From contig CP070695.1 of assembly GCA_020353515.1 (NCBI GenBank), forward strand, positions 3,108,943 to 3,161,431: a DNA stretch of 52,489 nucleotides. The letters are read 5' to 3'. The position numbers were made by a program, and so were the translations under genes. The DNA comes from Candidatus Heimdallarchaeota archaeon (GTDB taxonomy: Archaea > Asgardarchaeota > Heimdallarchaeia > Hodarchaeales > Hodarchaeaceae). Position 1 is the first letter of the stretch; each line of letters opens with the position of its first letter. Of the stretch, positions 6,473 through 27,490 are shown piece after piece. The notes beneath the pieces were generated by a model. The model was not told the origin of the DNA. It ran no database searches and was given only the letters and a program-made list of their open reading frames with translations.

Positions 6473-7375
6473 TTACTGGCCTTTATGAACTTCTTCTATT
6501 TTTTCTTCCAAAAATCCCAAAATGTCACTTGTTAAATCAAAAATAGAATATGGATTTATTACAATCAAATTGATTTGATAACTTGATTGATTGTAAGATC
6601 TATCATTCAAAAACCAAGTAATTTGCTCTACAGTTCTACCACTGAATTTTTGTGCCGCTTCATTCAGCACTCCCTTTGTAAGAGAGTGTTTGTATTTGTC
6701 GGGATTGACATTGTAAATAAGAGGGTAAAGATAATACTCCTGCTCTTTATCAGCATATTTAGCACGAATCCCTCTTAAAATATCAACCACATCACCAATA
6801 TTATCAAATTTATCCCCTTCTTTGTCGCGCCAGGTGATCTTCCCTTTATTAACTGCTTCTACAGGAACCATTATGCTGGTATTATGAATAGTTGTCCCCA
6901 ACATCTTCTGGTTGTTAATACTCACCTGTACCCCTTGAGGAGTGATGATTTTAGTATAATTTATTGATATTTCTTCAACAATTCCTTCAACCTTCAAATC
7001 AGGGAGCATTATATAATCTCCAACATTGAATGGGTTAGTAACAAGAAGGTACAACCCACTAATGAAATTCCCAATAGTAGTCGATGAAGCAAAACCGATA
7101 GCTGTCCCAAGTAAAGCCGCTGCCCCAATGAATAGTTCTTCACCTGCGATCCAGAACAATCCTAAAAGAAGAAGAGTTGCACGACCTAACGTCCTTAACG
7201 CGTTATATAGCTCAGGAGAGATGTTTGATTTCACACGATTAAGGAGAAATCCCCATATAATCCATAGACAAAAAATAATAAACAAAACTTGTATTATATA
7301 TATTCCAAAAACAATTAAAGGATCAGTCAATAACTTTGTTAACGAATCATCAATTAAATCTTGAGTGATGGTCAA
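6473..7375 (-). CDS. mscS: Small-conductance mechanosensitive channel family protein
   Basis: GAAALLGTAIGFAS...NFISGLYLL..NPFNVGDYI....EGIVEEISINYTKI MscS core; C-terminal region atypical. Confidence 0.85.
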   Translation of the reverse strand: MTITQDLIDDSLTKLLTDPLIVFGIYIIQVLFIIFCLWIIWGFLLNRVKSNISPELYNALRTLGRATLLLLGLFWIAGEELFIGAAALLGTAIGFASSTTIGNFISGLYLLVTNPFNVGDYIMLPDLKVEGIVEEISINYTKIITPQGVQVSINNQKMLGTTIHNTSIMVPVEAVNKGKITWRDKEGDKFDNIGDVVDILRGIRAKYADKEQEYYLYPLIYNVNPDKYKHSLTKGVLNEAAQKFSGRTVEQITWFLNDRSYNQSSYQINLIVINPYSIFDLTSDILGFLEEKIEEVHKGQ

Positions 7376-7545
7376 AAATTATCACCTAGACACTTTTCTT
7401 ACGAAAATTCTGTATGTCCTTAGTCTTCCATCATCATAAAAAATGGTTTCCAAGCGAAAAAACTCATTTTTAGAAAACTTATCCTAAATTGTTAAAAAAA
7501 GAAAAAAAGCGAAAATGGAGGTATTTTAAGGAAATACAGAGAGAT

Positions 7546-8694
7546 TTACAGAATATGTATGCTTCCTGTCGAAGTGTCCAAGAAAACATAGATTTTCATG
7601 GAGGCAGAATCGTAATTTTCACTTTTATAAGTATATTCATCATCCGTTGAATAATCAGGAGTGTTAATAGTACCTGTTGATACATCAGCATAGATTTGAA
7701 GTCCTATAGATGAATTAAGCGCGTAATGAAAATCGATACTACCAGTTGAGGTACCCGCGTTATAATAGATTAGTGTATTATTGTCTATTGATTCTTGAAA
7801 GAGATCAACGGAAATTGATCCAGTTGAAGTATCGATCATCCATTCTACTTCACTAGAGTAGTACATCAATTCGAAAAAATCCGCTGTAATTGATCCTGTA
7901 GACGTATGGAGAGTGAAATCTTGTGATGCTGAAAAGTACACTTCGGAAAAATCAACAGTGATGCTTCCAGTACTTGTGTCTAAATATAGAGAGGAAATAT
8001 TCGTTTGATAAGCACCGACTGAAATTGCCCCTGTTGAGACTTCTATATTCAATTCTGTGGTTGCACGATTAGATATCAAAATATCTAGCTCATATAAATA
8101 TGGATTCTCCCAATCTGAGTCAGAAGATGAATCAAAAGTTATAAAATAATGATTATTATATTCTTCGTATTCAATAGTGTTGGCCTCATAAAGATGGTAA
8201 CCTTCACGTGCGTAGACATGAATTTGAGCTTCGAAAAATTTTATATTCTCTACAATATCAATATTCACTGCTCCTATGGAATTATCAACTTCTAGGTCAA
8301 TGTAGGCTGAATTATTAGTTAAGTTCTCCCCAATATATTCGTTAAGATCGCCGATATATTCATATTGGTTAAAGACATTGAAGGAAAATGGTAGAAAAGC
8401 TAGTCCTATCAAAATAACAGCCGCAAATCCCACAATCACAACAAAGAAGACTCCAATGAATACCCATTTTGCCCAGTTGGTTGAAGATCTATGATAGGGT
8501 CTGTAAGAACTAGTATAGCTGGGTGGGGGTGAAGTTTGGTTGTATGAACTGAAAACTGGTTTTTTAGGAGGTTGGGATTCCTTAGCAAATAATGGTTGAG
8601 TAGGTACTGAAGTTTTCACTTTGTTTCCGCAATATTCACAGAAGAGAGAATCCTCTGCGATCCTCCCACCACATTTTGTACAAAATTTTGACAT
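7546..8694 (-). CDS. Zinc-ribbon + Pro/Ser-rich linker + single TM + extracellular DUF4097-like beta-strand repeats
   Basis: N-terminal CTKC-x10-CEYC, one long hydrophobic helix, about 7 (T/V)STG(S/A/T)I repeats. Confidence 0.75.
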   Translation of the reverse strand: MSKFCTKCGGRIAEDSLFCEYCGNKVKTSVPTQPLFAKESQPPKKPVFSSYNQTSPPPSYTSSYRPYHRSSTNWAKWVFIGVFFVVIVGFAAVILIGLAFLPFSFNVFNQYEYIGDLNEYIGENLTNNSAYIDLEVDNSIGAVNIDIVENIKFFEAQIHVYAREGYHLYEANTIEYEEYNNHYFITFDSSSDSDWENPYLYELDILISNRATTELNIEVSTGAISVGAYQTNISSLYLDTSTGSITVDFSEVYFSASQDFTLHTSTGSITADFFELMYYSSEVEWMIDTSTGSISVDLFQESIDNNTLIYYNAGTSTGSIDFHYALNSSIGLQIYADVSTGTINTPDYSTDDEYTYKSENYDSASMKIYVFLDTSTGSIHIL

Positions 8695-8838
8695 CTTTTG
8701 TGTTCCTCAAGAATTTCTAATCTGGATAAAGGATGATCATTCATTTATAAATAACGTTAGATAGTGGAATAAATCCTGAAATTTAGTGCTTTTAATCCTC
8801 TCATTTTAACATAAAAAATAAAACGAGTATCCAGATGA

Positions 8839-9570
8839 ATGCAACGTATGGGTAATTATGAAGAAATCTTGTGGGAAGGTCGGATTCCACTTTCATCGGT
8901 TATATGGACTTTTGATCCAAATAAAACCTTTAAATTTTCTCCCTTATTTGAGGAACAACGACAACAAATCTGGAATGCAATGTGTAAAACACACCCTCAT
9001 TTGTACGATGGACAAATTTTAATTTTAAACGATTTCTCCTTTGAAAAAAATATACTGAAGTTAAATACTTGGACTATACGATTCTCGTGCATTCAAGTTT
9101 TTTTGAAGAAAAATCTTGAGGTTCCAAAATTTGGAGGATTAGGATTTCAAGCAATAATAACAGATCCAACATATTCTTATTTGTTGATAGGAGAAAGAGC
9201 ACACACATCTGAGTATAAACCAGGTTATAAGGCAATACCAGGAGGAATTTTTGAAGAAAGCGATAGTAAAAAATCGCTTTTAGAAGCGTGTTTACGGGAA
9301 CTTAAAGAGGAAATACAAATTGATGTCAATCCAGAATCCTTTTTTATCATAGCAATGGTCAGAGAAGCTTCAAAATTGGGAACATGCTTGATAATCGAGG
9401 TTGAGACAAGAGAAGATGTTTCCCAGCAGTCACTCTATGGGAATGATGAGTGGGAAAGCAATCAACTAGAATGGATAGAATTTTCTCAGGTCTTTGATTT
9501 AAAGCATAAACATCTTACAGAAGGATTACACTTTCTCAGATCAAAGTTGATTGAAAAAAATTCACTGTAG
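8839..9570 (+). CDS. Nudix hydrolase
   Basis: Nudix-like box PGGIFEESDSKKSLLEACLRELKEEI. Confidence 0.85.
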   Translation: MQRMGNYEEILWEGRIPLSSVIWTFDPNKTFKFSPLFEEQRQQIWNAMCKTHPHLYDGQILILNDFSFEKNILKLNTWTIRFSCIQVFLKKNLEVPKFGGLGFQAIITDPTYSYLLIGERAHTSEYKPGYKAIPGGIFEESDSKKSLLEACLRELKEEIQIDVNPESFFIIAMVREASKLGTCLIIEVETREDVSQQSLYGNDEWESNQLEWIEFSQVFDLKHKHLTEGLHFLRSKLIEKNSL

Positions 9571-10212
9571 ATTTCTATTGGCATAATCTGACAATATTCG
9601 TTGCTCTGCTCGCCTTAATCTTTCCTGCATCGCTACACGTTTAATGCCGATGTCTCGAGCTAAGCTTTCAATAGTTATTTTTGACCGTCGAGGGATCTCA
9701 TAATACCCTTTCTTGAATGCTAGTTCGAAGGCTTCTAGTTGTTTAGGTGTAAGAAGTGTTCCTTTTGATTTAAAAGGTGTTGAAGTAAGTGATACAATTT
9801 TGACGGTTGTAAATCGTAATTTCAGGGTATCCAATAGGGCTTTGAGGGCCTCACGAGAAGGGGAATAGACTGTATGATATTGAACACCTTTAACAATGAT
9901 AATTGGCAGAAGTGACATACTACCACTCTCTAAGATGGTTTCATAAATGGAAGGGTAATCCAAATCATGTTCTGAACGTGTGAAATAAATAGTAGGAGAC
10001 GAGGAAGTCACTTCAAAGTCACGAACACTCCCAGATGCTTTAACACTGTCAACATATGTTTGAATTGTTTTTTCACCCCCCTCTAGGGCCTCGATAAATC
10101 CGTAACCCTCAGGTAGCCTGATTGTAACAATTGTTACTTTTACAGGGATTCTTTTAGTCAATTCACATAAATAATAATCTTTGGAACTAATTTGAAGGTT
10201 AGTTTGAATCAA
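9562..10212 (-). CDS. Bacterio-opsin activator-type (HTH_10) transcriptional regulator
   Basis: C-terminal LTPKQLEAFELAFKKGYYEIPRR...LARDIGI....ERLRRAEQRIL. Confidence 0.88.
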   Translation of the reverse strand: MIQTNLQISSKDYYLCELTKRIPVKVTIVTIRLPEGYGFIEALEGGEKTIQTYVDSVKASGSVRDFEVTSSSPTIYFTRSEHDLDYPSIYETILESGSMSLLPIIIVKGVQYHTVYSPSREALKALLDTLKLRFTTVKIVSLTSTPFKSKGTLLTPKQLEAFELAFKKGYYEIPRRSKITIESLARDIGIKRVAMQERLRRAEQRILSDYANRNLQ

Positions 10213-10223
10213 TTTATATTCAT

Positions 10224-10237
10224 CCGTCGTGTGACGG
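10224..10237. promoter_or_regulatory. Inverted repeat, candidate operator between the divergent HTH regulator and EamA gene
   Basis: CCGTC-gtgt-GACGG, GC-rich within an AT-rich 73-bp divergent spacer and flanked by TATA-like sequences. Confidence 0.35.
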
Positions 10238-10285
10238 GAATAAGTATATTCTTCTTCAATTTTATCAACAAATTGGGATGAAAAA

Positions 10286-11230
10286 GTGGTATTAAAAGAA
10301 ATCTTATCGCGACATTTTTCTAAAGACCATCTTATTGCTATAGCTCAAGCCTTTTTTGTCACGATTCTCTGGTCTTCCTCCTGGGTGATCATTAAATTTG
10401 GACTTGAGGAGATGCCTCCGTTAATTTTTGCAGGATTAAGGTATCTCCTGGGAGCAGTAGTTTTGTTTGTGTTAATTTTTTCCAATAAGGAAAATCGGAA
10501 GTCACTAACAACTCAAACAAAGCATTGGTGGGTTTTAATTGGACTATATGGCTGTATATTTATTACCGTTACACAGGGAGGCCAATTCATTGCGCTAAAT
10601 CTTCTTCCAGCCATTACTGTTTCGTTTGCTTTGAATCTTACACCAATTGTTGTGATTTTTCTTTCTATTGGAATATTAAAAGAGGTTCCATCTTCAATGC
10701 AGATATTTCTCTTTTTGATAACAGTCATTGGGGTAGTGTTCTACTTTTTTCCCATCAACCTTACAATTGAGCTCCTTGGAATCTTAGTTCTCTGTTTATT
10801 AATATCAGCTAATGCTTTCTCTTCAATCTTAGGAAGGGCTATCAATCGAACTGAAACAGCTTCACCGCTTATTGTGGCTGGGGTAAGTATGGCGATTGGT
10901 TCAATCATTATGTTAATATGTGGAATCGCCATTGATGGGATTCAAATAATTTTTTCTTTATCAACTCTCTCCATTCTCTATATTATCTGGCTTGCCGTAG
11001 TTAACACTGCTCTTGCTTTTACTATTTGGAATAAGGCCATGCAGAGACTTAGGGCAATGGATATGACAATTATCAATAGCACAATGCTTCCCCAGATTGT
11101 CATTCTCTCAATCATTTTCTTGGGGGAAATGCCTATTCTAAAAGAATGGATCGGATTATTCTTGATTGTTATCAGTACCCTATTAATTCAACTTAGCCAA
11201 GCGAGGAAAAATTCCAACCTGTCTTCATAA
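10286..11230 (+). CDS. EamA/DMT family transporter
   Basis: About 10 TM helices, LWSSSWVIIKFGL..MPP...AGLRY, FTIWNKAM, FLGE. Confidence 0.92.
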   Translation: MVLKEILSRHFSKDHLIAIAQAFFVTILWSSSWVIIKFGLEEMPPLIFAGLRYLLGAVVLFVLIFSNKENRKSLTTQTKHWWVLIGLYGCIFITVTQGGQFIALNLLPAITVSFALNLTPIVVIFLSIGILKEVPSSMQIFLFLITVIGVVFYFFPINLTIELLGILVLCLLISANAFSSILGRAINRTETASPLIVAGVSMAIGSIIMLICGIAIDGIQIIFSLSTLSILYIIWLAVVNTALAFTIWNKAMQRLRAMDMTIINSTMLPQIVILSIIFLGEMPILKEWIGLFLIVISTLLIQLSQARKNSNLSS

Positions 11231-11238
11231 AAAATCAT

Positions 11239-12168
11239 CTAGTTTACTCCATCAGACCTCGGTAGAGGAGTGATTTCTCGGCGTAAGATTATGAGTGCTG
11301 CTAAGATGCCAAGTAAACCAATGATTTTAAATAACGATTGAAAAAGAAATTGGTCTCCAATCAAAGGAATGAGGTTCTCATAAAAAACAAAATAAGCCCC
11401 AATGAAAGAGATAATAACTGACAGTGCATTAGTTATCGGTGAAACAATTGATAATCTCCCTCGTTCAAAAGCAAGCATTTGTGCAATAATTGCGAAAAAA
11501 TATGTTAGTATTAACATGCAAACTGAGTATAGGAAGAGCCCTAATATTATCGAATCCCCAGTATTCATTTGGTTTAATGCAATCAGAAGACTTTTTGTGA
11601 ACAGGGTTCCTAATCCATAAAAAGTTCCAGCAAAAATAGGAAAAACGAATTCTGCATGACCTCGCTTGGATACAAACATAATAAAGACCATTGTAACCAT
11701 TAAGACGATAGTCAGAGGTAGGATGCCCAATAAAAGAGGAATATTCATGATATCTTCTGAAACTATGTTTGGAGAAAAAGCAACGAAAAGGAGGCCAGCT
11801 GTCAGGATCCCAATACCGAACCATTCTATTCTGGTTAACTTTTCATTAAACACTAAATAAGCAAGTCCAAATGTAAATAACAAATTTGTATTAACTAAAG
11901 GTTTAACAACAGATACATCATAAGTATTTAGAGCTATGGTATATATTACAAATCCAATAATTGCAGCAATTCCACCCAACATCCAAACAGGTGTAGTTAT
12001 TAAACGCCAAGCTGCTGGGCCAATATCACGAATAAAATTATTAATTTCAATGCCTCCTGCCCTGAAAATTCCAATCTTAAGGATAATGGCTGACCCTCCG
12101 CTCATCACTCCATAAATAATCATTATGAACAAAATAACAATATTACTTGTTAAGAGTGACATTTTCAC
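11239..12168 (-). CDS. DMT superfamily transporter, 9 TM, NIPA (Mg2+ transporter)-like
   Basis: 9 hydrophobic segments; DVSVVKPL, VFNEKL...EWFG, SIVSPI, VFYE. Confidence 0.75.
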   Translation of the reverse strand: MKMSLLTSNIVILFIMIIYGVMSGGSAIILKIGIFRAGGIEINNFIRDIGPAAWRLITTPVWMLGGIAAIIGFVIYTIALNTYDVSVVKPLVNTNLLFTFGLAYLVFNEKLTRIEWFGIGILTAGLLFVAFSPNIVSEDIMNIPLLLGILPLTIVLMVTMVFIMFVSKRGHAEFVFPIFAGTFYGLGTLFTKSLLIALNQMNTGDSIILGLFLYSVCMLILTYFFAIIAQMLAFERGRLSIVSPITNALSVIISFIGAYFVFYENLIPLIGDQFLFQSLFKIIGLLGILAALIILRREITPLPRSDGVN

Positions 12169-12221
12169 GTCTTCCTGCTTCTACATGATTCTAATAAAGT
12201 ACTTCAACCTGATCTTAAGTC

Positions 12222-13097
12222 TTATGTGAATAACCAGAGGGTTAACACCATTATTATCATTCCTGCAATAATCCCAAGTGAAATCAGATGGGACTCGTCT
12301 GCGTTTTTAGCAGCGGGTAATAACTCGTCAAAAGAGATGAAGACCATAATTCCTGCAACAAAAGCTAGCGATGCTCCAACAACAGCTGGAGATAAGAATG
12401 GAAACAATAGAATAGCAGCTACAAAAGCACCCACGGGCTCTGCAAGACCAGAGAGTAATCCTAATCGAAAAGCATACCACTTGTCACCAGTTGCTGTTAC
12501 TATGGGTATACTGACAGAAAGGCCTTCAGGGATATTATGAAGACCTACAGCAATAGTAAGGACAATACCAAGCTCTACAGATTGTAGAGTACTTGTAAAT
12601 GTAACCAATCCTTCAGGAAAGTTATGTACGGCTATACCTAATGCGGATAATATCCCGATTTTATGAATCTCTCCTTTAGAGATAGAGAGCTTATCATTTT
12701 CGAATGGTAAATCATAAGAATGGGTATGGCTGCTGTCTTCTTCTTTATAGAAATGTGGGATGAGAAAATCAATCGCAAAAATAGTAAAAATTCCTACAAA
12801 AAACCAAATATTTGCCCAAAGAAACGCATCGCTTTCTATTAATCCTTCGTTGGAGAACTCATCAATAGCACTAGGTAGTAGTTCAACAAATGAAACAGCT
12901 AACATCACTCCACCAGAGAAACCCAACCCTAAAGCGAGAAGACGAATAGAAGGTTTTTTAGTTATAAAAGCAAATGCCGCGCCAATTGTGGTAGCAAAAC
13001 CTGCAAAACTCGTGAGAATTAGAGCTATTACTAATGTATCAAAGGTTATAACTGTTTCTTGAAAGATCATTGGCATAAACCAGAAACTTTTTAGCAA
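12222..13097 (-). CDS. zupT: Zinc transporter ZupT (ZIP family); true start may be one of the downstream Mets
   Basis: GFSGGVMLAVSFVELLP, HNFPEG, HNIPEG, SGLAEPVGA, GIMVFISFDELLP. Confidence 0.93.
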   Translation of the reverse strand: MLKSFWFMPMIFQETVITFDTLVIALILTSFAGFATTIGAAFAFITKKPSIRLLALGLGFSGGVMLAVSFVELLPSAIDEFSNEGLIESDAFLWANIWFFVGIFTIFAIDFLIPHFYKEEDSSHTHSYDLPFENDKLSISKGEIHKIGILSALGIAVHNFPEGLVTFTSTLQSVELGIVLTIAVGLHNIPEGLSVSIPIVTATGDKWYAFRLGLLSGLAEPVGAFVAAILLFPFLSPAVVGASLAFVAGIMVFISFDELLPAAKNADESHLISLGIIAGMIIMVLTLWLFT

Positions 13098-16176: not shown

Positions 16177-16497
16177 TTACTCTCCTCTCTTAGAAATTTT
16201 TTGAAGAAATTCAATTTTCCTTATTCCAACTTTTTTTCGAACTGCTGACAACATTTTTTTTGTCCAGATCATCCGTGGGTTCTTAGAACATGGTTGTTTG
16301 TACACTTTATCAATCTTGAATGACGCATCTTGACCCTCTTCATCCATATTCCAAAATGCTGCTAGTAATTCCGTGAGATCCCAAGCTTCTGCTGCAGTTG
16401 GTGCTGATACAAAGGCGCAACTATTTACTATTTTATCATCTAGAGCAATTGTAAATTTTGCACAGAAGATTTTATCAATTACTCTACTTTTTGACAT
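16177..16497 (-). CDS. Hypothetical protein, probably co-transcribed with the giant surface protein
   Basis: 106-aa ORF starting 10 bp after the giant gene stop, purine-rich SD (AAGGA) upstream; no recognised family. Confidence 0.65.
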   Translation of the reverse strand: MSKSRVIDKIFCAKFTIALDDKIVNSCAFVSAPTAAEAWDLTELLAAFWNMDEEGQDASFKIDKVYKQPCSKNPRMIWTKKMLSAVRKKVGIRKIEFLQKISKRGE

Positions 16498-16507
16498 TTT
16501 CTATTCC

Positions 16508-19500
16508 TTATTCTCCAGATTCCTGCGTGAGGAGTTCTGTTGTCCCGTATATATCTTCATACGAAATAATTATTGCTGAAACATATTTTCTTAATTCAGA
16601 TACTCTTCTACGAATTTCATTCTTATTTGAAGGATCTTTGTCCATAAGTAAATGGAGAGCGTGAACTTCTCTTTGAATTTCGTCCTGAAATTGATTTACT
16701 AGTGGAAATAGATCTTTATGAACTAAAATATTGCAGGTGAGATTTTCTTGCCCGCCTCTGGCTTCTGGCCTTTCTAATGAATAACCAAATGACATTACGC
16801 TAGTACGAAGACCCTGCGCCAAAACAAAATCATAACTAGATGGGATTTCACTAACGAAATCATCACTAAATCCAGTTCCACTGAAGGAACGGTCTGAGAG
16901 GTCAACCAGCTTCGAAAAGTTATCTTTAAGGATCTCAGGGATTACAATAATCGGAATCGGTCCATGTCTCTGATCAAAGAAGCTGACTATCACTCCAATG
17001 GTATGAGCGTCAAGAGAAGCCATAACTTGAACATCAGGGACATCAGAAAGGTTTTTGAGTACCAGGTCTTTGTCTAAACCAACAAGTTCAGGTTTTCGAA
17101 TGAATTTAACATAAACAATAGATCCAATGAAAATAACAAATATAACAAGACCAGCAAGAAGTAAAACCCATTCAGGAAGTCCAGGAGGCTGATAATTAAA
17201 CCGTTGATTTCGAATTATCTCTGGGAAGTCTCGAACGTCATAGGCAAAATGACTATTCCCATCAACGTCTTCTGTATAAATCCGATAAATGATATCTGTA
17301 TTAGAATTATTGTGAAAGAAAGGTACAACCACAGTATAATTAGAAACGTCACTGTTACTATCCTGATATATCATTTGAGCTTCAAGCCAATTTGGCTCTA
17401 TCTGCAGAAATTCAGCTCCTACTCCTCCATTTGAATCGTTTGCTGGTTTGAAATAGTAGTAAAGTATGACTTCCTTAATTCCAGATCCATAATCTACTAC
17501 TTCAGCGAAGAAAATCAGATTTGTGGGATTAATTTCATCATCTTTTATGAAATAAGCAGTAATGATGCGGGGTGGAGCCTTATCTTCTAGTGTAAAGGTG
17601 AATGTGTAGGTTGATCGAATGTAATAAATTCGGGAATAATTTACTTGTGTAACCACAGTCACATTGACTAACACAAAGGTATCAAGATAGGAATAATTGG
17701 ATAATTCAAATGGATAAACCCAAATACTGGTTAAGTCTGTTAATGGAGATGTTTGGATGAAAGAAGCGAGTTCTTCATCGGTTGAATTAATGTATAATAA
17801 GTATTCGACTTGGGTGATTCTATTATTTAGCGAGTCAGTGACATTGACTTCTAAATCAAACAATCCTTCTGCATCAGAGAGAGGAATTGCACTGAAATCA
17901 TGAATTTGTGGCCGACTTTCGATATAGATCACTGGGGAGGTTTTATTAACTCCAAATTCAACCCCATCATGAGGCCAGATTACATAATTCCAAAAATCGC
18001 CAGGTTGAAGAGAATTGGCAGTAATTATTGTTTGATTGTCATAACTGGGATTGTATACACCATTAAGGTACCATCTTATTGTAAGTCTAGGTTCATCACC
18101 ATCAGCATCTGAATAAAGGTATAAACTTGTTATTTGTATCACTTCATCTTCAACGATATACTCAGGATGGATCGAAGTGTGAATGGTAACTGTTGGTCTG
18201 GTGTTGAGAATAAAAACAACGGATGAAAATACTGTTTCACTCCACAACCCACCAGTATCTTTAACTGCAATAGCTACTTGCCAGCCTTGTTCTTTAGTCA
18301 CATAGCTAACAGGTATTAACGATTGATTATTGAATTGGGTTTGAATCTCACCATCCAAATACCAAATGATTGACCACGAATTTTGACCATCAATTGAGTC
18401 AATATCTTCAAACTCCCATGTAACTTCCAGAGTATCAGTAGTGTAAATTTGTGAGCCATTATTGACCAGAATATTCATAACTGTTGGCGCTGAATTTATG
18501 ATCGTAATTGTATTTGATTGATAACGGGTTGAATAATCATACCCATCAGTAACATTTATTGTAAAGAACCACCTTTCCCCACGATTGGTCATACTTGCAG
18601 GAACACTAGTGAAACTACCAACGTATTCTCCATTTCTATACCATTCGATCATAGCTGCTTGTACATTCTGGAGATCCCCATCTGGATCAGTGAAATTCCA
18701 AGTTGCAACAAGATCTGATGTAGTATAGGGAGAAAGAGGGAGCAAGACCACATCAGAAGTTGAAGGGGGAGTGTTTTGGATGGTGATGGTTGGTAATTGA
18801 TACCAAATACTATATGCCTCTCCATCCCATACACTGATGTTGACATACCAAGTTTCTGATTTATTGGTTACCTGGGAGGGGATAATTTGATAGTTAATAT
18901 ATTGGGGAAGGGGGGTACCATTACGATACCAATAGATTAAGGGAGCAGCTTCAACATCATCAGTGTCATAATCATAAAACGTGTACTGGAATGAAAGTGA
19001 ATTTGTTGTGAAATAAGTAGATTTAGTCCATTGAAGATTTAGTATCAAAGGAGCTGTGTTACCAATAGTAATCTTAGTTGAGTTAACTGATACTCCATAA
19101 TCACCGTAAAAGTCTCTAGGTTGAATTGAAGCCCACCAGATGTCTCCCTCTTTTGTGTTCATATAGGTAACAACTGTTTTATCATTCAATGCAGAGATTA
19201 AAGTTGTTACTCCAGACCGGTTTCGATACCATTGATATTTTGATCCCACAACATATCCATCAATGACAACAATGTCATAAGCTACAATTCCTTGAGTTCC
19301 ATCGATATCAGAAGCATTATACCTCAAAACAAGATCAAAATTTGTACCAAATGAGCCTCCATAATAAGTTGTCCCATTAAACAGGCCATCAATAGCTGTC
19401 TCAACGGAAACAACCACAGGAGGGGTATTACCAATAATAATACTAATACCATAATATTTGCTAATAATTAACTCACCATATTCGTCCCCATCATGTGGTT

Positions 19501-22500
19501 TGATACTCACCCACCACCTTTCTCCTGCTACGGTATTAATATAGCTCAAATTCGTTAAATCATTAGAGATCTGCTTAACAGCTGTTTCCCAGGTTATTGA
19601 TGGAGTGAATTCAGAGTCTTCTGGATCATCATCATTCCATGAATAAGTAAGATTAAGGGGATCAGAAGTTGTTGTACCACCAGTGATTTTGATGCTATAA
19701 GGATCAATCCATGGTTTACTATTCAAAATATTGATCTGAAGGGCAGAACTTTCCCAATCTGATAAAGCTGTTCCATCTGTTACTTGTATATCAAAATACC
19801 ATCTATCTCCCTTCCTTGTTGCTGTATTAGGGAGAATGAGCATATTAGCATATGTACCATTAGGCACCCAATCAGGGATACTTGTATCATACCAATACCA
19901 TGTGACTCCCGCGACACTAATAGAATCAAGATCCGCATCCTCCGCTGTATAATACACGGTGAGATTATGTATCGTCCGAGCTTCTGTTTCCACAAATGAA
20001 GCCAGTGAAATAATTGGTTTGGAATTTAAAATTTGGAAGTTCTCTGATGTATAAATTTCTCCATAATCCAAACCATCAGATGGGAGGATAGTGTAATACC
20101 AAAATTCCCCTTTTGTAATTCTCGACCCAGGAACACTTAAAGAGTCATTTAAATCTGTTTGAAGATCCGATCCCTTATACCAGCGAATTTCAGTTAGTTC
20201 AATATTATCCCCATCAGGGTCTTCTAGAGCATTTAGTATATCATTTAGATTTAGTATTATGCCATTCGCTTTAGCTGGTTCAGTCGGAAGGGGAAGATCT
20301 GTTATATTTAGTGGAGCAGTATTTTCAATTTGTACATGCATTGATTCATAAATAGTAGAATAATTTTCCCCATCATAAACCCGAATCTTAAACCACCAAA
20401 CTTCATTTTTGGAGGTATTCCCTGATTCAACGGTCGTTTTATTACTAAGGCCTACTAATGGTTGCCCCGGATCATTCATAAACCATTCAATGAGGGGGGT
20501 AAGAGGATCATTATCAATATCGGAATCGTCCCATCCTGCCACCAAATCATTAGTAGTTGTGGGATTTGACGTGATGCTTAAATTACCAAGTAGGGGAGCA
20601 GTGTTACGAATTGTTACATTCGATAGAAGTGAAATAATACTTGAAAAACTTTCTCCATCTGTTGCGTTAATTGAAAAGTACCATTTGTCGTTTTTAGTGG
20701 TGTTTCCTGCTGTAAGAATTGCACTCGTGCTTGTTGTTTCCCAGCTAGAGTTGAATTCTCCATTTAAAAACCAAGTTATGTTGTACGTTAGCCCTTCTCC
20801 ATCATTATCTGAACCTGCCCAATTAGCAACCAAGTCAGTGGTAGTCGTAGGGTTATTAGTAATACTTAAATCTGAAACTATCGGAACAGAATTTAGAATG
20901 GTCACTGGAATTGAGTTATAAAGGATAGACCAATTAAGACCATCGAAAACTCGAATAGTACAGTTCCAAATGTCGTCTTTGGTCGTCAAGCTTGCATCAA
21001 CGACCAACGAATCATTCAAAGCTGGTTGTAATAATCCACCTTTATACCAACGAATCTCCCTGTCACTTTGGAGATGGCCATCTACGTCTATATAATCATA
21101 ATCAAAGATGAGATCCTCTGTAGTCGTATTGGTGTTTGCGGTTAAATTTAAGTTCTGTACTTCAGGTATATTATTAGGAGCTGATCCTATGACCACAAGA
21201 CTTGAAGTATAATTTTGACTCCAAGAAGTCCCATCATAAACCCTAATCTTGTATTGCCAAAAATCAGTCGACTTCGTTTCACTACTATGTAAAGTAACAT
21301 TGTTAAATTTAGAGGCGTTGTAAACACCATTTGTAAACCAATAAACAATTCTTTGAATAGTATTTTCATGATCATCGTCGGCATCGTTGTAAGTATACGT
21401 AATATTTATGGTGTCGACAGTAGTGACATCTGTAGTTTTGTTAAATGTGGGAGAAATGACAGTGGGTATTGAATTAATAATTGTGGTATTCGCTGAAATG
21501 TATTCCGTAATTGAATAATTTGAACCGTCAAAGATCCTTACAGTGTACCTCCACACTTCACCTTTACTAGTATTACCCCAACCTAAGAATGTAGAATTTT
21601 GAGCACTAATTAGCTCAACCCAATCCCCTACACCCACAGTCCAATTATACCATTTAATTATGGTAACATAAAGGTAATCGTTAGGATTGTCACCATCCAC
21701 ATCGAGAGCTGTCCATGAAGCAATCAAATTATCCTCAGTGGTAGGATTAGATGGAATCATTAAGTCTGTAGCAGTGGGAGGAGAGTTTAATATCACGGTT
21801 GTTGGTGAAGAATATAGAATAGAGTAATTAGTTCCATCAGAGACCTTCAACGTAAAGTTCCAGACATCTCCTTTACTGGTAGCACTGGCAGGAACAATTT
21901 TCTCATTATTATAAACAGTCTGAAGCTGATTGTCTTTGTACCATCGGATAATCCACGAGTCTGCGGGTTGAGTATCACCAACATCTGTATCGTTAAATGA
22001 CCAGCTAGCTGTTAGATCATCTGTGGTCAGTGGGTTAATTGTTATTGCCACATTTGATGCTATGGGAGGAGTATTGAGAATTTGGATATGAGGAGATTCT
22101 ATTAAATCTGAATAGTTCTCTCCATCGAAAACCTGGACTTTAAAGTGCCACCATTCATTTTTTGTTGTATTACCTGAACCTATTAAGGTTAAGTTTGTCC
22201 AACTCGATTGTATTTGTCCGTTTTTATACCAATAAATGATTGCAGCAGCTTTATTTTCCGTGTCCCCTGTATCTACATCGGCCATATCCCAGCTCGCAAC
22301 GAGAGAATCATTTGTTCTTGCATCTACAGGTGAAATGGTCAAATTGACTGCTTCAGGGGGGGAATTCTTAATGATTACATGAGAGGAGTTCACCCAGTTA
22401 GAGTAAGAAGTTCCATCATTTACTCGCATTCTGACGTAGAATTCATCCCCTTTTGAAGTTTGGTCTGGTGTTATTGAGGTTTGGTTATCAACGCCCATTA

Positions 22501-25500
22501 TATGCCCTGATCCAACTTTATACCACTCAATCTGACGTGCAACGATAGTCTCATTATCTTGATCATAATCAGAATAAGTATACTCAATAGAGAGGACATT
22601 AGTCGTAACTGGATCAACAGGTTTTAGTTCAACATTTGAAAGACTGGGGGGAGTATTTAGAACAGTAATAGAAGAGGAATTTACTCTATCTCCAAATAAT
22701 TCGCCATCTTTAGGGGTTACTGTCACATACCATTCGTCATCGGGGAATAGTTCACTGTGATCTCGCTCTAAAGCCACTGTACCATCCACAGGGTAGTGAT
22801 AGGTAGAATGCAGCTGGTATCCAGAACCATTGTTCCGATACCAGCAGATTTCGGTGCCACTTTCATAATCAGGAGTCTCATCATCATAATAATCATAAGC
22901 GAGTACTAATGTACTATTACTATAGCAATTCAATGGACTGAGGGTGAGATTTCCCGCTACAGGGGGATGATTAACATATACATAACTTTCTGTTATACTA
23001 GAAACGCCAAAATTCCCAGCGGTATCGTTAACAAAAATCTGATACTTGATATCGCCATTTGAAATAGATGCATCATCACGAATGTAACCCATGATATTAC
23101 TGAAATTTTGATAATTAGTCATGACCCATTGGGATGGACTAGGCATTGTTTCAGAATGATAAGTGACATTAACAATGACTGTGTCCACAGTCCCCCAAGA
23201 ATCAGTAACATTAGCTGTGAATGTGAATTTATGGTCAAAATATCGAGCTAAAACATTAGGGGCTACAATATCATTTGTAAAATTATAATTCCTCTCAGTT
23301 GTGTTAAATTGCAAGAAATTTCCAAAAGCATCAGAAGCATTTGTAATCTGATAAACATAATTTTCATGATAGGTGGCTTGCAGCTGATAAATCCAATAAG
23401 AACCATTAAAGGTCATTGAATAATCGTTACCATTGATCTTAATTTCAGCACTAGCAACCTCAGAAGTTGAATCTGAAATATCAGCCCAGAATTCCCCTAT
23501 ACCAGTTCCTAGATCTTCCACTCCAAAATCATTGACCACTGGTGGTTCTGTATCGAAAACAACTTCCGAACCTGCTGAATAAAAGTTTACTGGGTCGTAC
23601 TGATTTTGATATTCAGTTTTAATCCATTCTAGTGATCGTGCTACAATGGATACCCGGGGTTCATCAAGAATTCCTTCAAAATAACCGCTTGCTCTGCCTA
23701 TAGCCCAATCTGAAATTGTAATAGCATCTTGTTCTTGTAGTCTGATTTGAGGATTCGATCCAAATCGTGGAGTTGCTAGCTCACCATTAAGATATAAAAT
23801 CAAATGAGTATGATTATATATGGCAGTAACATAGGTATACTCATTGAGGGGAGGATAATTTGTGGAGACTGCACTCACATTATAACCAGGACCAAAATTC
23901 AAACGAATGTGTAAACATTGCCAGTCAGTTTCGATTGCTAACCCATTATCCCTATTTCCAACTTCGGATAGAAGTCCTGCTTTATGAATAGTTCCTGTCG
24001 GATAAATCCAAGTACTTAACGTAAGAGCGGTTTGACCATTTGTACCTAGATCCCCTAATGACAGGTAATCATCACTTCCATCAAAATCCAATGCTCCATT
24101 AATCTTCCCTGTTACTTGATCCCCAGAAGTCATTCCACCACTACTGGAAGCATGGTTGGCATTGTAAGTGCTATCCTCAATCTGTGAACTTGATGGATCT
24201 TCTTTTAGATGCCATACTCCTTTGTAATTAGAGTCCCAAACTTCAAAAGGATTTTGCTGATCTAAAAGGTTGCTATTACCATAATACATACTGATACATG
24301 TATCTTCTGAACCAGATACAAATGGTAATCTCACCCACGCAATCAAATGGCCTTGTACAACATTTTGACTGAAGTATTCGATCTCATGATCTAGCTTCGT
24401 CCCATTTGCTGTAGTAAACAGAAGGTCAGCTGCATCAGCCTGAATATTCCCACTTTTTAATGAGGCATCATCGATTTCTATGAGTACTGGAAAATCGAAT
24501 AGATTATCGAAGACATTTTCTTTATAAATAACAATATCTCTCCGTTTTGTAAATGAAGCATCAACCCACCATCGTGAATACTCCTCTTCATTCTTTACAG
24601 TAATAAAATTGTCTGGATTATTTTGATTATTGAATTCTGTTAATATCCAATCAGCTGATCTGAAGGTGTGAGCGACTCGAAATTCATCTAAATAACCCTT
24701 GAAACTTTGTGAAGAATAAGCATCTCCAATTACAAATGGTTCTGAAACAACCACAAGACTCCCATTCGGTTTATATGCTGACCCCATAGGATTACCATTT
24801 ACATATGTTCTGAGATATTCTCCATCATATGAATAATGAATTAGATTCCAACTCTGACGATAAATTTGCACATTAGAATAAGATGTAGTTGAATCACTCC
24901 ATTTAATATCTGGTTGAAATCTCCCAGTACCACTCGACATAAAACTTTGACGCCATAGACGTGTTAATCTCATGCTGTAGGCATAAAATACACGACCCCC
25001 ACTTTGTTGTTCCCACTCAAGATCAGAGGTATAATTGGGGTAAATCCATAAAGAGAACGAAAAAGTAGTACTATTATCGAAAATGTTGTCAGAGTTAGAT
25101 GTATCGATTCTTGAGCCTGTATCGCCCGTAAATTCCCGCATTCCTCCTATTTTCCCCATCTCTATATAATTCGTGCTATAGGGAGTTCCGTCGTGATCAT
25201 TTTTTGTCGAATCCCTTATATAGCTTCCAGTACCACTTACCTCTTCGAAGTGCCATACTCCTTCGTAATCATTCCAAGTAGTAGATGGGTTTTCTTGTGT
25301 CCTAACCGCATTATTTCCATAATATAAGGTTATATTTGAATCGATTCCACTCCTTAAAGCAGGAACCTTGACCCATGCTCTTAGATGTGCATGTGTACCA
25401 TTCCCAGTCTGATCAAAGGATTCAATTTCGTGATTTAATTTTATTCCAACATTACTTTTTTGTAAAGTGGCAATTTTCAAGCTAAAAGAATCAACACTAC

Positions 25501-27490
25501 CAGCATCCCAACCTGATTCTAAACATCTCGCCCACACTCTAATGTAACGAGTATTTGTTGGTATAAGCATATTTGAAATGGAATATTGTGTCCATGTATT
25601 TGGGGTTTGGAGATATCCTGTATCTAAAGGAGTTGAAATAACGTCTTTCGAGCTATCTAGAAACTGAATTCTGACGTTAGAATTATCATAATCTGGTTCT
25701 GAGGATACTAACCATGCTGAGGCGTTGATGATAGCTTTTCCATTATCAATATAACTAGAGTATCCTGAGATACTAACATCTTGTCTGATATAGTCAGAGG
25801 AGGCTCCTCCAGACGACACATAAGCACAATAACTACCGAATTGAGGTCCACCGGATCCTAAAGGTGGTTTGGTTCCTACTTCCCAATTTCCTGAGGACGT
25901 CCAACCATTTAGATTACCACCTTCAAAATTACCATTTTGAATTAATTCACTAGTCCATACCCACTCATCCTCACTTGCAAACAAGATATCATCGCCATCC
26001 ACTTGGACTTTACTAGGATTATTCAAATCTGGATCACTAATATTTATTAAAACAGGAAAATTCACCAAAGTGGTTCCACTGACCTCAGAAGAATTAATTG
26101 TGATATTCTTTCTATATCTAAATAGAGGAAATGCCCAATCTTCAGAAATCGGCGAAGATTCTTCAATTGAAACTGAATAAAAATTTGAAGGATTAAACTG
26201 GTTAAGATATTCAGTTAGAATCCAATCGGAGGTTTTTATAGCATTCAATAACCGAAACTCCGTCACGACAGCTTCAATCTCATTATGAGGATTATCACCT
26301 CCAACTCCATTTGCAGCATCATCTTGGGCTCCAATAGCAAATGTATTCCAGTCAATATGTGTTCCAATTAAAGGTGTACTATCCGTAGAATCTAAAGAAC
26401 CGTCTATGTAGATTTGATGAAGTCCTGCTACACCACCATCCCACGAACAGACAATCGAATACCAATTATCCGCGCTAAACACTGTTTGAGTCGAATCTAA
26501 CTCTGATTCTGAGGAAGTATCGCTTTCAATTCTAAATTGAAAATTATCATCAAAAGAAAGACGAGGGTCATAGAATGTGGTTCCAGGGGCTCCTAAATAT
26601 GTAGTAGCGCTAGGACCTCCATTAGGAAACATAATCCAGAATTGAAAAGACATTTTATCTGTAGGGCCATTGAATCCTTTAGAAAGATCTAAGTAAATAT
26701 AATCATTGGACCCATCAAATGAAATTCCTTTGCCAAGATTTCCATCTACAAGGTCATCCTGTGTCATTGAACTAGTACTTTCAATAGTGAAATCATAATT
26801 ATTACTTGTACTATCCTTTATGTCTGAGATTGATGGATCTTGATTCATATGCAGAACAAATTCATATTCACTACTATTCCAAACGCCTGTAGGATTATCT
26901 TGGTTTACAGTTGTTGGGTTTCCATAATACATCATTACTGTTGTATCACTAATATGACTCAAATTTGTTTTAACCCATGCAATTAACTGGGCTTGAGTAG
27001 AGGAATAGTGTCGATTATAGAGCTCCACTTCATGATCTAATACATTTCCCGATGTATCCGTGAAAAAAATATCAGTTCCATCTACTTGGGCATCACATTT
27101 GAGATCCTCATCTTTTAAATCGATATATAAGGGGAAATTAGTCAAGTACGAATTAACCGAGGAGGAGGAAATAGTGATATTTTTTCGGTATTTCCAACGT
27201 GTATCAATCCAACCACCCACAGTATAAGGAGAATGAATGTTAAATTTAATATCAGAGCTAGTATCTTGTGCTTTTTCAAGTTTACTGTTCGCCAATCGCT
27301 GTACATTATGAGTATTTGTATGATTCTTTTGTGAAATTCCAAATCCCTGTAAAAGTTCAATTGTAGTTCCATTTGAAGTCCAAAAATTTTGTTTTTGGAT
27401 TGGCATACTTATAATCATCATATTAAAAAGGAGAATGTAAAGAATCAACTTTGTACCATTCTTATATAATAACATTCGACTAATCTCCAT
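16508..27490 (-). CDS. Giant type I membrane surface protein: 3x(DUF2341+LamG), 17 cadherin/Ig-like repeats, TM, cytoplasmic uDENN/longin-like domain
   Basis: N-terminal signal/anchor; three W..(R/K).I.I...L..FP....D...D..F...L.HE.E...AWV...YYGN modules each followed by a LamG-like domain; N-x-x-P...DxDxD...WY.NG...K...W..V..DG repeats; TM WVLLLAGLVIFVIFIGSIVYV; tail VIVSFFDQRHGPIP...PEARGGQE. Start may be Met7 (27472), which has GGAG 9 nt upstream. Confidence 0.9.
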   Translation of the reverse strand: MEISRMLLYKNGTKLILYILLFNMMIISMPIQKQNFWTSNGTTIELLQGFGISQKNHTNTHNVQRLANSKLEKAQDTSSDIKFNIHSPYTVGGWIDTRWKYRKNITISSSSVNSYLTNFPLYIDLKDEDLKCDAQVDGTDIFFTDTSGNVLDHEVELYNRHYSSTQAQLIAWVKTNLSHISDTTVMMYYGNPTTVNQDNPTGVWNSSEYEFVLHMNQDPSISDIKDSTSNNYDFTIESTSSMTQDDLVDGNLGKGISFDGSNDYIYLDLSKGFNGPTDKMSFQFWIMFPNGGPSATTYLGAPGTTFYDPRLSFDDNFQFRIESDTSSESELDSTQTVFSADNWYSIVCSWDGGVAGLHQIYIDGSLDSTDSTPLIGTHIDWNTFAIGAQDDAANGVGGDNPHNEIEAVVTEFRLLNAIKTSDWILTEYLNQFNPSNFYSVSIEESSPISEDWAFPLFRYRKNITINSSEVSGTTLVNFPVLINISDPDLNNPSKVQVDGDDILFASEDEWVWTSELIQNGNFEGGNLNGWTSSGNWEVGTKPPLGSGGPQFGSYCAYVSSGGASSDYIRQDVSISGYSSYIDNGKAIINASAWLVSSEPDYDNSNVRIQFLDSSKDVISTPLDTGYLQTPNTWTQYSISNMLIPTNTRYIRVWARCLESGWDAGSVDSFSLKIATLQKSNVGIKLNHEIESFDQTGNGTHAHLRAWVKVPALRSGIDSNITLYYGNNAVRTQENPSTTWNDYEGVWHFEEVSGTGSYIRDSTKNDHDGTPYSTNYIEMGKIGGMREFTGDTGSRIDTSNSDNIFDNSTTFSFSLWIYPNYTSDLEWEQQSGGRVFYAYSMRLTRLWRQSFMSSGTGRFQPDIKWSDSTTSYSNVQIYRQSWNLIHYSYDGEYLRTYVNGNPMGSAYKPNGSLVVVSEPFVIGDAYSSQSFKGYLDEFRVAHTFRSADWILTEFNNQNNPDNFITVKNEEEYSRWWVDASFTKRRDIVIYKENVFDNLFDFPVLIEIDDASLKSGNIQADAADLLFTTANGTKLDHEIEYFSQNVVQGHLIAWVRLPFVSGSEDTCISMYYGNSNLLDQQNPFEVWDSNYKGVWHLKEDPSSSQIEDSTYNANHASSSGGMTSGDQVTGKINGALDFDGSDDYLSLGDLGTNGQTALTLSTWIYPTGTIHKAGLLSEVGNRDNGLAIETDWQCLHIRLNFGPGYNVSAVSTNYPPLNEYTYVTAIYNHTHLILYLNGELATPRFGSNPQIRLQEQDAITISDWAIGRASGYFEGILDEPRVSIVARSLEWIKTEYQNQYDPVNFYSAGSEVVFDTEPPVVNDFGVEDLGTGIGEFWADISDSTSEVASAEIKINGNDYSMTFNGSYWIYQLQATYHENYVYQITNASDAFGNFLQFNTTERNYNFTNDIVAPNVLARYFDHKFTFTANVTDSWGTVDTVIVNVTYHSETMPSPSQWVMTNYQNFSNIMGYIRDDASISNGDIKYQIFVNDTAGNFGVSSITESYVYVNHPPVAGNLTLSPLNCYSNSTLVLAYDYYDDETPDYESGTEICWYRNNGSGYQLHSTYHYPVDGTVALERDHSELFPDDEWYVTVTPKDGELFGDRVNSSSITVLNTPPSLSNVELKPVDPVTTNVLSIEYTYSDYDQDNETIVARQIEWYKVGSGHIMGVDNQTSITPDQTSKGDEFYVRMRVNDGTSYSNWVNSSHVIIKNSPPEAVNLTISPVDARTNDSLVASWDMADVDTGDTENKAAAIIYWYKNGQIQSSWTNLTLIGSGNTTKNEWWHFKVQVFDGENYSDLIESPHIQILNTPPIASNVAITINPLTTDDLTASWSFNDTDVGDTQPADSWIIRWYKDNQLQTVYNNEKIVPASATSKGDVWNFTLKVSDGTNYSILYSSPTTVILNSPPTATDLMIPSNPTTEDNLIASWTALDVDGDNPNDYLYVTIIKWYNWTVGVGDWVELISAQNSTFLGWGNTSKGEVWRYTVRIFDGSNYSITEYISANTTIINSIPTVISPTFNKTTDVTTVDTINITYTYNDADDDHENTIQRIVYWFTNGVYNASKFNNVTLHSSETKSTDFWQYKIRVYDGTSWSQNYTSSLVVIGSAPNNIPEVQNLNLTANTNTTTEDLIFDYDYIDVDGHLQSDREIRWYKGGLLQPALNDSLVVDASLTTKDDIWNCTIRVFDGLNWSILYNSIPVTILNSVPIVSDLSITNNPTTTTDLVANWAGSDNDGEGLTYNITWFLNGEFNSSWETTSTSAILTAGNTTKNDKWYFSINATDGESFSSIISLLSNVTIRNTAPLLGNLSITSNPTTTNDLVAGWDDSDIDNDPLTPLIEWFMNDPGQPLVGLSNKTTVESGNTSKNEVWWFKIRVYDGENYSTIYESMHVQIENTAPLNITDLPLPTEPAKANGIILNLNDILNALEDPDGDNIELTEIRWYKGSDLQTDLNDSLSVPGSRITKGEFWYYTILPSDGLDYGEIYTSENFQILNSKPIISLASFVETEARTIHNLTVYYTAEDADLDSISVAGVTWYWYDTSIPDWVPNGTYANMLILPNTATRKGDRWYFDIQVTDGTALSDWESSALQINILNSKPWIDPYSIKITGGTTTSDPLNLTYSWNDDDPEDSEFTPSITWETAVKQISNDLTNLSYINTVAGERWWVSIKPHDGDEYGELIISKYYGISIIIGNTPPVVVSVETAIDGLFNGTTYYGGSFGTNFDLVLRYNASDIDGTQGIVAYDIVVIDGYVVGSKYQWYRNRSGVTTLISALNDKTVVTYMNTKEGDIWWASIQPRDFYGDYGVSVNSTKITIGNTAPLILNLQWTKSTYFTTNSLSFQYTFYDYDTDDVEAAPLIYWYRNGTPLPQYINYQIIPSQVTNKSETWYVNISVWDGEAYSIWYQLPTITIQNTPPSTSDVVLLPLSPYTTSDLVATWNFTDPDGDLQNVQAAMIEWYRNGEYVGSFTSVPASMTNRGERWFFTINVTDGYDYSTRYQSNTITIINSAPTVMNILVNNGSQIYTTDTLEVTWEFEDIDSIDGQNSWSIIWYLDGEIQTQFNNQSLIPVSYVTKEQGWQVAIAVKDTGGLWSETVFSSVVFILNTRPTVTIHTSIHPEYIVEDEVIQITSLYLYSDADGDEPRLTIRWYLNGVYNPSYDNQTIITANSLQPGDFWNYVIWPHDGVEFGVNKTSPVIYIESRPQIHDFSAIPLSDAEGLFDLEVNVTDSLNNRITQVEYLLYINSTDEELASFIQTSPLTDLTSIWVYPFELSNYSYLDTFVLVNVTVVTQVNYSRIYYIRSTYTFTFTLEDKAPPRIITAYFIKDDEINPTNLIFFAEVVDYGSGIKEVILYYYFKPANDSNGGVGAEFLQIEPNWLEAQMIYQDSNSDVSNYTVVVPFFHNNSNTDIIYRIYTEDVDGNSHFAYDVRDFPEIIRNQRFNYQPPGLPEWVLLLAGLVIFVIFIGSIVYVKFIRKPELVGLDKDLVLKNLSDVPDVQVMASLDAHTIGVIVSFFDQRHGPIPIIVIPEILKDNFSKLVDLSDRSFSGTGFSDDFVSEIPSSYDFVLAQGLRTSVMSFGYSLERPEARGGQENLTCNILVHKDLFPLVNQFQDEIQREVHALHLLMDKDPSNKNEIRRRVSELRKYVSAIIISYEDIYGTTELLTQESGE
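17920..22975 (-). repeat. 17 tandem about 99-aa Ig/cadherin-like protein repeats, diverged at the DNA level
   Basis: Repeat starts NHPP, NTPP, NSPP, NTPP, NSPP, NSIP, NNIP, NSVP, NTAP, NTAP, NSKP, NSKP, NTPP, NTAP, NTPP, NSAP, NTRP; nearly all carry a DxD(xD) loop and W..V..DG. Confidence 0.85.

Follow-up and report, generated by a model that had tools for sequence, protein, structure and literature searches.

Folliculin (FLCN), GATOR1, and C9orf72-SMCR8 are off-switches of Rag and Arf GTPases in eukaryotic nutrient signaling at the lysosome. FLCN-FNIP2, the counterpart of yeast Lst7-Lst4, is a GTPase-activating protein (GAP) for RagC/D (Protein Data Bank [PDB] entries 6NZD, 6ULG, and 8DHB), NPRL2, as part of GATOR1/SEACIT, is a GAP for RagA/B, and SMCR8-C9orf72 is a GAP for Arf/Rab; the catalytic arginine fingers are R164 in FLCN, R78 in NPRL2, and R147 in SMCR8. 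The combination of an arginine finger with a GP motif, located at the end of the β1-β2 loop or the start of β2, is particular to the longins of FLCN, NPRL2, SMCR8, and C9orf72, is not found in the longins of adaptins, TRAPP, and DENND proteins, and occurs in one class of Asgard longins (PMC12290439). Asgard NPRL2-like longins, forms of these fused to two-component domains, and longin-DENN proteins resembling FLCN have been reported as well (Liu et al., bioRxiv 10.1101/2020.10.19.343400). Here, we describe a longin of this class at the cytoplasmic end of a giant surface protein, P0001, encoded in a 52,489-nucleotide (nt) stretch of the genome of Candidatus Heimdallarchaeota archaeon (GenBank assembly GCA_020353515.1, contig CP070695.1, positions 3,108,943 to 3,161,431; hereafter, the window). 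We propose, at about an even chance, that this GAP-type tail docks a Rag-like GTPase and most likely speeds GTP hydrolysis through the conserved arginine R3578.

The source genome is a single contig of 4.94 Mb, and the G+C content of the window is 33-38%. Translation of the open reading frame (ORF) at 16508-27490 on the minus strand yields 3,660 amino acids (aa) with no internal stop. The gene and the parts of it that form the membrane-anchored tail are as follows:

16508..27490 (-), whole gene P0001, a single-pass surface protein with a longin tail (uninterrupted ORF; relatives across many Asgard genomes)
17099..17170 (-), single transmembrane (TM) helix, aa 3441-3464, with R-K-P after it (hydropathy reaching 2.89 over 19 aa)
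16511..17098 (-), predicted cytoplasmic tail, aa 3465-3660, 196 aa, with two short helices and then the longin domain (AlphaFold2 [AF2] model)
16547..17002 (-), longin core, aa 3497-3648, β1 β2 α1 β3 β4 β5 α2 α3 (DSSP of the model)
16952..16978 (-), FDQRHGPIP, aa 3505-3513, the GP motif at the β1-β2 hairpin (G3510, P3511; alignment)
16742..16771 (-), RPEARGGQEN, aa 3574-3583, the β4-β5 loop with the candidate arginine finger R3578 (codon 16759-16757; alignment)

The longin domain of the tail falls into the FLCN/NPRL2/SMCR8 structural class and keeps both signature elements of that class. The AF2 model, built on a 66-row alignment of relatives, has a predicted local distance difference test (pLDDT) score of 92.5 and a predicted template modeling (pTM) score of 0.88. 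DSSP assigns to it, in tail numbering, E33-42, E46-53, H55-75, E85-93, E97-109, E117-127, H128-154, and H159-184, that is, the order β-β-α-β-β-β-α-α after two short helices, with the five-stranded antiparallel sheet of the longin (uDENN) fold; the protein ends 12 residues past the last longin helix. Among PDB structures, Foldseek matched the tail best to chains from the FLCN-FNIP2-Rag-Ragulator and active FLCN GAP complexes, to a Lokiarchaeota longin, and to GATOR1 and Lst4. An independent comparison with 48,161 chains by VIA-align gave Z scores of 13.7 for the Lokiarchaeota longin 8yqg, 11.6 for 6nzd_H, 11.0 for 7o2w_A, and 10.8 for 8fw5_B, with Lst4 at 10.7 and the SEA complex at 10.2. The top 20 rows comprise 8yqg, chains of Lst4, FLCN-FNIP2, C9orf72-SMCR8, and GATOR1/SEA (Z 9.4-11.7), and DENND1 (Z 8.8-9.0); generic longins, including TRAPP, AP sigma, VAMP7, Ykt6, and sedlin, follow at Z 7-8, and a second run reproduced this step in the scores. 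The nearest structures thus belong to the GAP-type class and stand above the generic longins. The nearest shapes in the ESM Atlas include clusters bearing Avl9, Folliculin, C9orf72, "UDENN FLCN/SMCR8-type," and NPR2, and a language-model search returned clusters bearing NPR2, LST7, and C9orf72, which we treat as leads only. LOV/PAS and LuxR-type ligand-binding domains, which also appeared in the Foldseek list, were rejected, with a root-mean-square deviation (rmsd) of 10-40 Å or a Z of about 6, well under the longin rows.

Some of these neighbors are exchange factors rather than GAPs. If the tail were a guanine nucleotide exchange factor (GEF) or a sensor of nucleotide state, it would bind a GTPase in the manner of DENN-type uDENN/longin modules or Mon1-Ccz1, and the scores of the DENND1 uDENN, a Rab35 GEF, and of the Mon1-Ccz1 longins (Z 6-6.7), together with the Avl9-bearing cluster among the nearest Atlas shapes, are in line with this. 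We consider such a function highly improbable: the tail has no cDENN/dDENN part, the GAP-class chains outscore the GEF-class chains, and the GP motif and loop arginine that it carries are reported to be missing from DENND-family longins (PMC12290439).

These two elements dominate the conservation of the family. The most conserved columns of the alignment are G3499, F3505-D-Q, G3510-P3511, P3513, P3575, R3578, E3582-N3583, and R3634. In the GP hairpin, which lies within IGVIVSFFDQRHGPIP (aa 3498-3513; 16999-16952), F is kept in 65 of the 66 rows, D and Q in 61 each, G3510 in all 66, P3511 in 62, and the second P again in all 66; G3510-P3511 correspond to tail residues 46-47 and open strand 2, the location described for the GP motif (PMC12290439). 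The β4-β5 loop, within YSLERPEARGGQENLTCNILV (aa 3570-3590; 16783-16721), supplies the conserved arginine on the loop next to this hairpin, with R3578 present in 65 of 66 rows, P3575 in 62, E3582 in 64, and N3583 in 62. Judging from the topology, the GP hairpin and the R3578 loop would leave the same edge of a longin sheet with the strand order 2-1-5-4-3. An earlier note on this DNA (hereafter, the original prediction), made from the sequence alone, had quoted both stretches together with a single TM helix and a tail of ~200 aa, all of which translation and a hydropathy scan confirm, with both stretches exactly where it had put them. Its assignment of the tail to the uDENN/longin domains of the FLCN/SMCR8/NPRL2 type is borne out by the AF2 fold and by Foldseek, VIA-align, and Atlas neighbors that include FLCN, SMCR8/C9orf72, NPRL2, and Avl9, and the F-x4-GP hairpin and ARG loop that it had taken as family marks are indeed the most conserved parts of the 66-member alignment.

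The family also has sequence links to folliculin. Matches to the Pfam Folliculin family below its cut-off were obtained for 22 of the 66 tail family members, with the best E value of 1.9e-4, and in the members examined singly, these matches cover the segment with the ARG loop. A whole-genome search with Folliculin (PF11704) yielded nothing above the cut-off; the best match in this genome is its own 439-aa soluble folliculin-like protein, with which the tail family profile aligns at 82% probability and an E value of 1e-5 (hhalign). In that alignment, FDQRHGP is paired with FDEEHGP and RPEARGG with DPEARGR, so that both motifs are in register. When PDB sequences were searched with the tail, its family profile, the profile of a distant subfamily, and the soluble folliculin-like protein, FLCN, NPRL2, and SMCR8 were not reached, and the searches returned designed helical proteins and comparable noise.

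An exhaustive HMMER search with the tail alone retrieved 152 representative clusters at E<=1e-3, 80 of these at E<=1e-30, and the tail is therefore not a chance feature of one protein. The match is located at the extreme C terminus in nearly all representatives, which range from about 200 to 5,800 aa and stem, according to the source labels, from bins of Hodarchaeales and of Heimdall-, Thor-, Hermod-, Odin-, and Promethearchaeota; these labels are "hypothetical" or refer to a domain of the ectodomain. In 101 of the 112 representatives that bear the GP motif, a hydrophobic helix is found no more than 70 residues upstream of it, with ~150 residues then remaining to the end, and the TM helix and the tail therefore constitute one module. 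The original prediction had suggested looking for the same tail on other ectodomains in Asgard genomes. A profile search detected the tail in 112 of the 301 genomes of the phylum. It was present in 19 of the 20 genomes of the window's own genus, where a single genome may hold as many as 11 copies, but in none of the genomes of two well-sampled families (0 of 76 and 0 of 19). The genome studied here contains the tail at five more loci, at one of them as a fragment that includes an in-frame stop.

Unrelated ectodomains carry this TM-plus-tail module, in proteins of 200 to over 10,000 aa. Such a distribution, along with the copy number, is what the main rival explanation would predict, namely, that the tail is a noncatalytic docking or sorting tag, a passive platform by which a GTPase or a coat-like or cytoskeletal machinery recognizes, positions, or retains a class of surface proteins, for example, at contact sites or in protrusions. 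In that case, the protein would serve as cargo or effector instead of regulating, and any flow of information would run inside-out. Most eukaryotic longins are platforms or parts of GEFs rather than GAPs (PMC12290439), the tail has neither a DENN domain nor an identified partner longin, and tubulin/FtsZ-like and Roadblock genes are found near the closest paralog (see below), all of which suits a tag. The best-kept residues are nevertheless those of the GP hairpin and the ARG loop, which are reported to be GAP specific and missing from adaptin, TRAPP, and DENND longins, and the GAP-class structural neighbors score ~3 Z units above the platform-type longins. We therefore regard a docking tag as possible but somewhat unlikely.

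Same-genus open frames that end in the tail measure as much as 10,431 aa (tail at G062:C193:39670-40212) and 10,069 aa (tail at G102:C10:124864-125406), and tandem tail genes occur on G062:C193, G139:C13, and G280:C19, among others. The fragment in the present genome (G000:C1:338954-339193) is 68% identical over residues 98-177 and lies ~1 kb behind an intact tail gene. It probably represents a tandem copy in decay, and 2 kb beyond it is a Ras-like gene.

Turning to the genomic context of the family, Rag-like GTPase genes are enriched beside relatives of the tail gene. In four same-genus genomes, a strong Rag-like gene is located within 10 kb of 8 of 30 tail genes, compared with an expectation of 1.2-1.7, and the arrangements are of several different types. 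The closest paralog in the present genome, a protein of about 400-449 aa with a 75% identical tail and a short ectodomain, lies in a 17-kb stretch (G000:C1:2893000-2910000) that contains genes for a Roadblock/LC7 protein, a Ras-like protein, a copy of P0002 (a small gene adjacent to P0001, described below), a tubulin/FtsZ-like protein, and two Gtr1/RagA-like proteins, the latter forming a divergent Rag-like pair of 739 aa and 303 aa, as well as conserved, uncharacterized 311-aa and 1,140-aa genes. A tail gene in another bin has next to it the same block of ~310-aa, 1,140-aa, tubulin-like, and Rag-pair genes; a third bin shows part of the block, in which a single Rag-like gene accompanies the ~300-aa and ~1,140-aa genes. 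In a thorarchaeotal genome, a Rag-like pair lies 77 nt from the stop of the tail gene. Finally, 56 nt behind the gene for a 3,671-aa same-genus relative with the same tail (1622-12637 of stretch L018, from G102:C1), a 300-aa Gtr1/RagA-like gene begins in the same orientation (12694-13596 of L018), and a second Rag-like gene lies 4 kb beyond; with 39% identity to P0001 across 2,077 residues, this relative is not its ortholog.

Several observations weigh against a Rag-directed GAP. The four genomes with the neighboring Rag-like genes are kin and not independent, and the nominal p-value of the enrichment is therefore too strong; no GTPase gene is found nearby in the contigs of 3 of the 7 sampled relatives or near most of the same-genus tail genes. 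R3578 is equated with R164 of FLCN, R78 of NPRL2, and R147 of SMCR8 by loop position and motif alignment, not by residue-level superposition. The Folliculin cut-off (PF11704; 23.3 bits) is reached by none of the 66 members, with 18.4 bits as the best score among ten scanned singly, and the tail of the giant protein itself has no Pfam match at all. Eukaryotic GAP longins are heterodimers with DENN or other C-terminal domains; the tail has no such domain, and no partner longin was identified, none having been tested for. The presence of one tail on many unrelated ectodomains equally fits a general anchoring or sorting module. Last, inspection of both flanks of the giant gene revealed no GTPase gene beside it.

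This last observation would also be expected if the tail were a self-association module, forming pairs or oligomers under the membrane and thereby building a lattice or cluster of ectodomains with no small GTPase involved. In keeping with this, the nearest solved structure, 8yqg, was deposited as a dimeric longin domain, and the eukaryotic relatives all form longin-longin pairs (PMC12290439). Self-association leaves unexplained, however, both the near-invariant arginine and GP motif at the loop edge and the excess of Rag-like genes beside relatives, and we judge it quite improbable.

In the reading that we prefer, docking and GAP activity toward a Rag-like GTPase, the tail would act at the inner membrane face by docking a small GTPase of the Rag-like, roadblock-fused kind, R3578 would most likely accelerate GTP hydrolysis by the docked GTPase, and the local state of the GTPase would depend on where the surface protein is positioned or clustered; the tails may, in addition, dimerize, as the longin-longin pairs of eukaryotic complexes do. 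Our confidence in the parts of this scheme falls from the engagement of a small GTPase by the tail, through GAP activity via R3578, to the alteration of that activity by events at the ectodomain. The original prediction is partly supported: its structural half holds, whereas the receptor that it had proposed, coupling surface contact or glycan binding to small-GTPase regulation, is a hypothesis. A more far-reaching version, which we find doubtful, holds that TM-anchored GP-longin tails are receptor-type GAPs, or membrane tethers and GAPs at once, for Rag-like GTPases, and that a forerunner of the lysosomal Rag-folliculin/GATOR1 nutrient-signaling axis operated at the Asgard plasma membrane, wired to giant adhesin-like ectodomains that would sense contact with partners or substrates.

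The remainder of P0001 is consistent with a location at the cell surface. The Kyte-Doolittle scan found only two hydrophobic stretches in the 3,660 residues, aa 13-33 and the TM helix at aa 3441-3464, and the N-terminal segment and the modules of the ectodomain are as follows:

27392..27454 (-), N-terminal hydrophobic segment, aa 13-33, a signal peptide or N-terminal anchor (Kyte-Doolittle; same segment in many full-length relatives)
23576..27223 (-), three DUF2341 and three Laminin_G_3 modules (concanavalin A-like lectin fold), aa ~90-1305, approximate limits (Pfam)
17930..22972 (-), ~16 tandem repeats of ~96 aa, aa 1507-3187 (phmmer, with one repeat against the protein giving 16 hits)

The Pfam matches in the first ~1,300 residues, each in 3 stretches, are to Laminin_G_3 (PF13385; E 2.3e-30) and DUF2341 (PF10102; E 6e-19). 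The repeats, which often have N-[ST]-[PA]-P at their boundaries, with this motif spaced at 93-97 aa, are probably β-sandwich modules; a BLASTP self-comparison of the protein found no repeats, and phmmer revealed them. The ectodomain contains 91 N-x-S/T sequons, compared with 52 expected from its composition. Because of this excess, the basic R-K-P after the TM helix, and the N-terminal hydrophobic segment, the ectodomain is placed outside and the 196-aa tail inside. As far as sequence features can tell, the protein is thus a very large, N-glycosylated, adhesin-like, single-pass surface protein. The cytoplasmic location that the original prediction had given to the tail agrees with the sequon excess, the basic residues, and the TM helix preceding the tail in 101 of the 112 representatives.

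Directly downstream of P0001 is a small gene that recurs with the closest relatives of the tail:

16177..16497 (-), P0002, a 106-aa gene 10 nt downstream of P0001 on the same strand, a conserved companion of the closest tail subfamily

P0002 has no Pfam family. Of its three copies in this genome, two lie directly behind tail genes, and P0002 appears to have been duplicated together with the tail genes. Its 13 relatives (61-74% identity) come exclusively from Hodarchaeales-type bins, several sharing contigs with tail proteins, and have an invariant core, CAF-SA--A-EAWDLTE and KQPCSKN, as well as a basic C-terminal helix. The structure predicted for P0002 alone (pLDDT 62) is too weak for a fold search, and the complex prediction for the tail with P0002 had a score of 0.00, which counts neither way. 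Beyond P0002 lie BtpA, GNAT, and radical-SAM genes, and on the upstream side of P0001, a divergent PP-loop ATPase gene.

Further along the window, at 39576-40136, is a gene for a 186-aa Ras-family GTPase (Pfam E 7e-44), which the original prediction had suggested modeling together with the tail. We found no link between the two and rejected the GTPase as a partner: the gene is 12 kb away, and the major facilitator superfamily (MFS), UbiA, aminotransferase, TPR, and other genes in between are unrelated and lie in both orientations. The distance itself is uninformative and expected by chance, because the 4.94-Mb genome contains 64 matches to the Ras superfamily; it also has 32 Gtr1/RagA matches, 30 of them above the cut-off. 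The Ras-family GTPase is followed after 10 nt by a 256-aa ORF with no Pfam family (39576-40916, +), with which it may form a GTPase-partner pair of its own. In the intervening region, two adjacent, co-oriented MFS transporter genes encode proteins of 560 and 549 aa (33723-37256, -), of which Pfam covers the transporter part only. Elsewhere in the genome, three Rag-like genes are clustered at 4.152-4.158 Mb.

The domain class of folliculin, GATOR1, and C9orf72-SMCR8 is found here directly under the Asgard membrane, in many copies per genome. The tail hints at a connection from the cell surface to small GTPases in archaea closely related to eukaryotes. In several relatives, the tail gene is in an apparent operon with a Rag-like GTPase gene, which provides concrete protein pairs for biochemistry that bear on a pre-eukaryotic origin of longin GAP activity and of a link from receptor to GTPase. 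Even as nothing more than a docking tag, the tail would give Asgard surface proteins a common cytoplasmic handle.

The claim of the original prediction that the architecture was undescribed holds in part. Asgard longins with the GP motif and arginine and NPRL2-like fusions have been published, and GAP-type Asgard longins are thus already known; what appears to be new here is the membrane-anchored form on large and varied surface proteins. A literature search that covered the texts of papers found no paper on a TM-anchored GP longin on adhesin-like ectodomains, and the word "transmembrane" is absent from the text of PMC12290439. The published Asgard GP-motif longins share the domain class and the phylum with the tail but are soluble or fused to receiver/kinase-type domains. 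The best structural match, the Lokiarchaeota Roadblock-Longin protein 8YQG (Z 13.7; rmsd 2.9 Å over 141 residues), is likewise an Asgard protein but is fused to a roadblock domain instead of a membrane anchor and has no detectable sequence similarity to the tail.

Among eukaryotic proteins, the longin SNAREs VAMP7, Sec22b, and Ykt6 are the known membrane-anchored longin proteins and have a cytoplasmic longin as well, but theirs is N-terminal and is followed by a SNARE motif and a C-terminal anchor, with no ectodomain and without the GP and ARG motifs. They are only generic structural neighbors of the tail (Z 7-7.9), and in P0001 the order is reversed, with the TM helix followed by the longin and nothing after it. 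Plexins are single-pass receptors of animals with a cytoplasmic RasGAP-like GAP domain for Rap, the activity of which depends on clustering; their large ectodomain, one TM helix, and cytoplasmic GAP resemble the logic proposed here, by analogy only, the fold being unrelated. NPRL2 and SMCR8-C9orf72 share with the tail the fold class (Z 9.6-11.3 to the chains of GATOR1, SEA, and C9orf72-SMCR8) and the logic of a GP motif with an arginine finger, but are subunits of soluble, lysosome-recruited, multisubunit complexes, whereas the tail is membrane-anchored, with no C-terminal domains and no identified partner subunit. The arrangement of FLCN, SMCR8, and FNIP, a longin followed by DENN, and the C-terminal domain of NPRL2 are both absent from the tail. 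Because of the missing DENN domain, the lack of an identified partner longin, and the Pfam scores under the cut-off, the tail protein is not a folliculin ortholog. The FLCN longin nevertheless shares with it the fold (Z 10.8-11.7; rmsd 2.6-3.3 Å over 135-140 residues), the GP at the β1-β2 hairpin, and the A-R-G on the loop before the last strand; FLCN, however, is soluble, has a C-terminal DENN, and forms a heterodimer with FNIP, whereas the archaeal domain is a lone longin on a single-pass giant surface protein.

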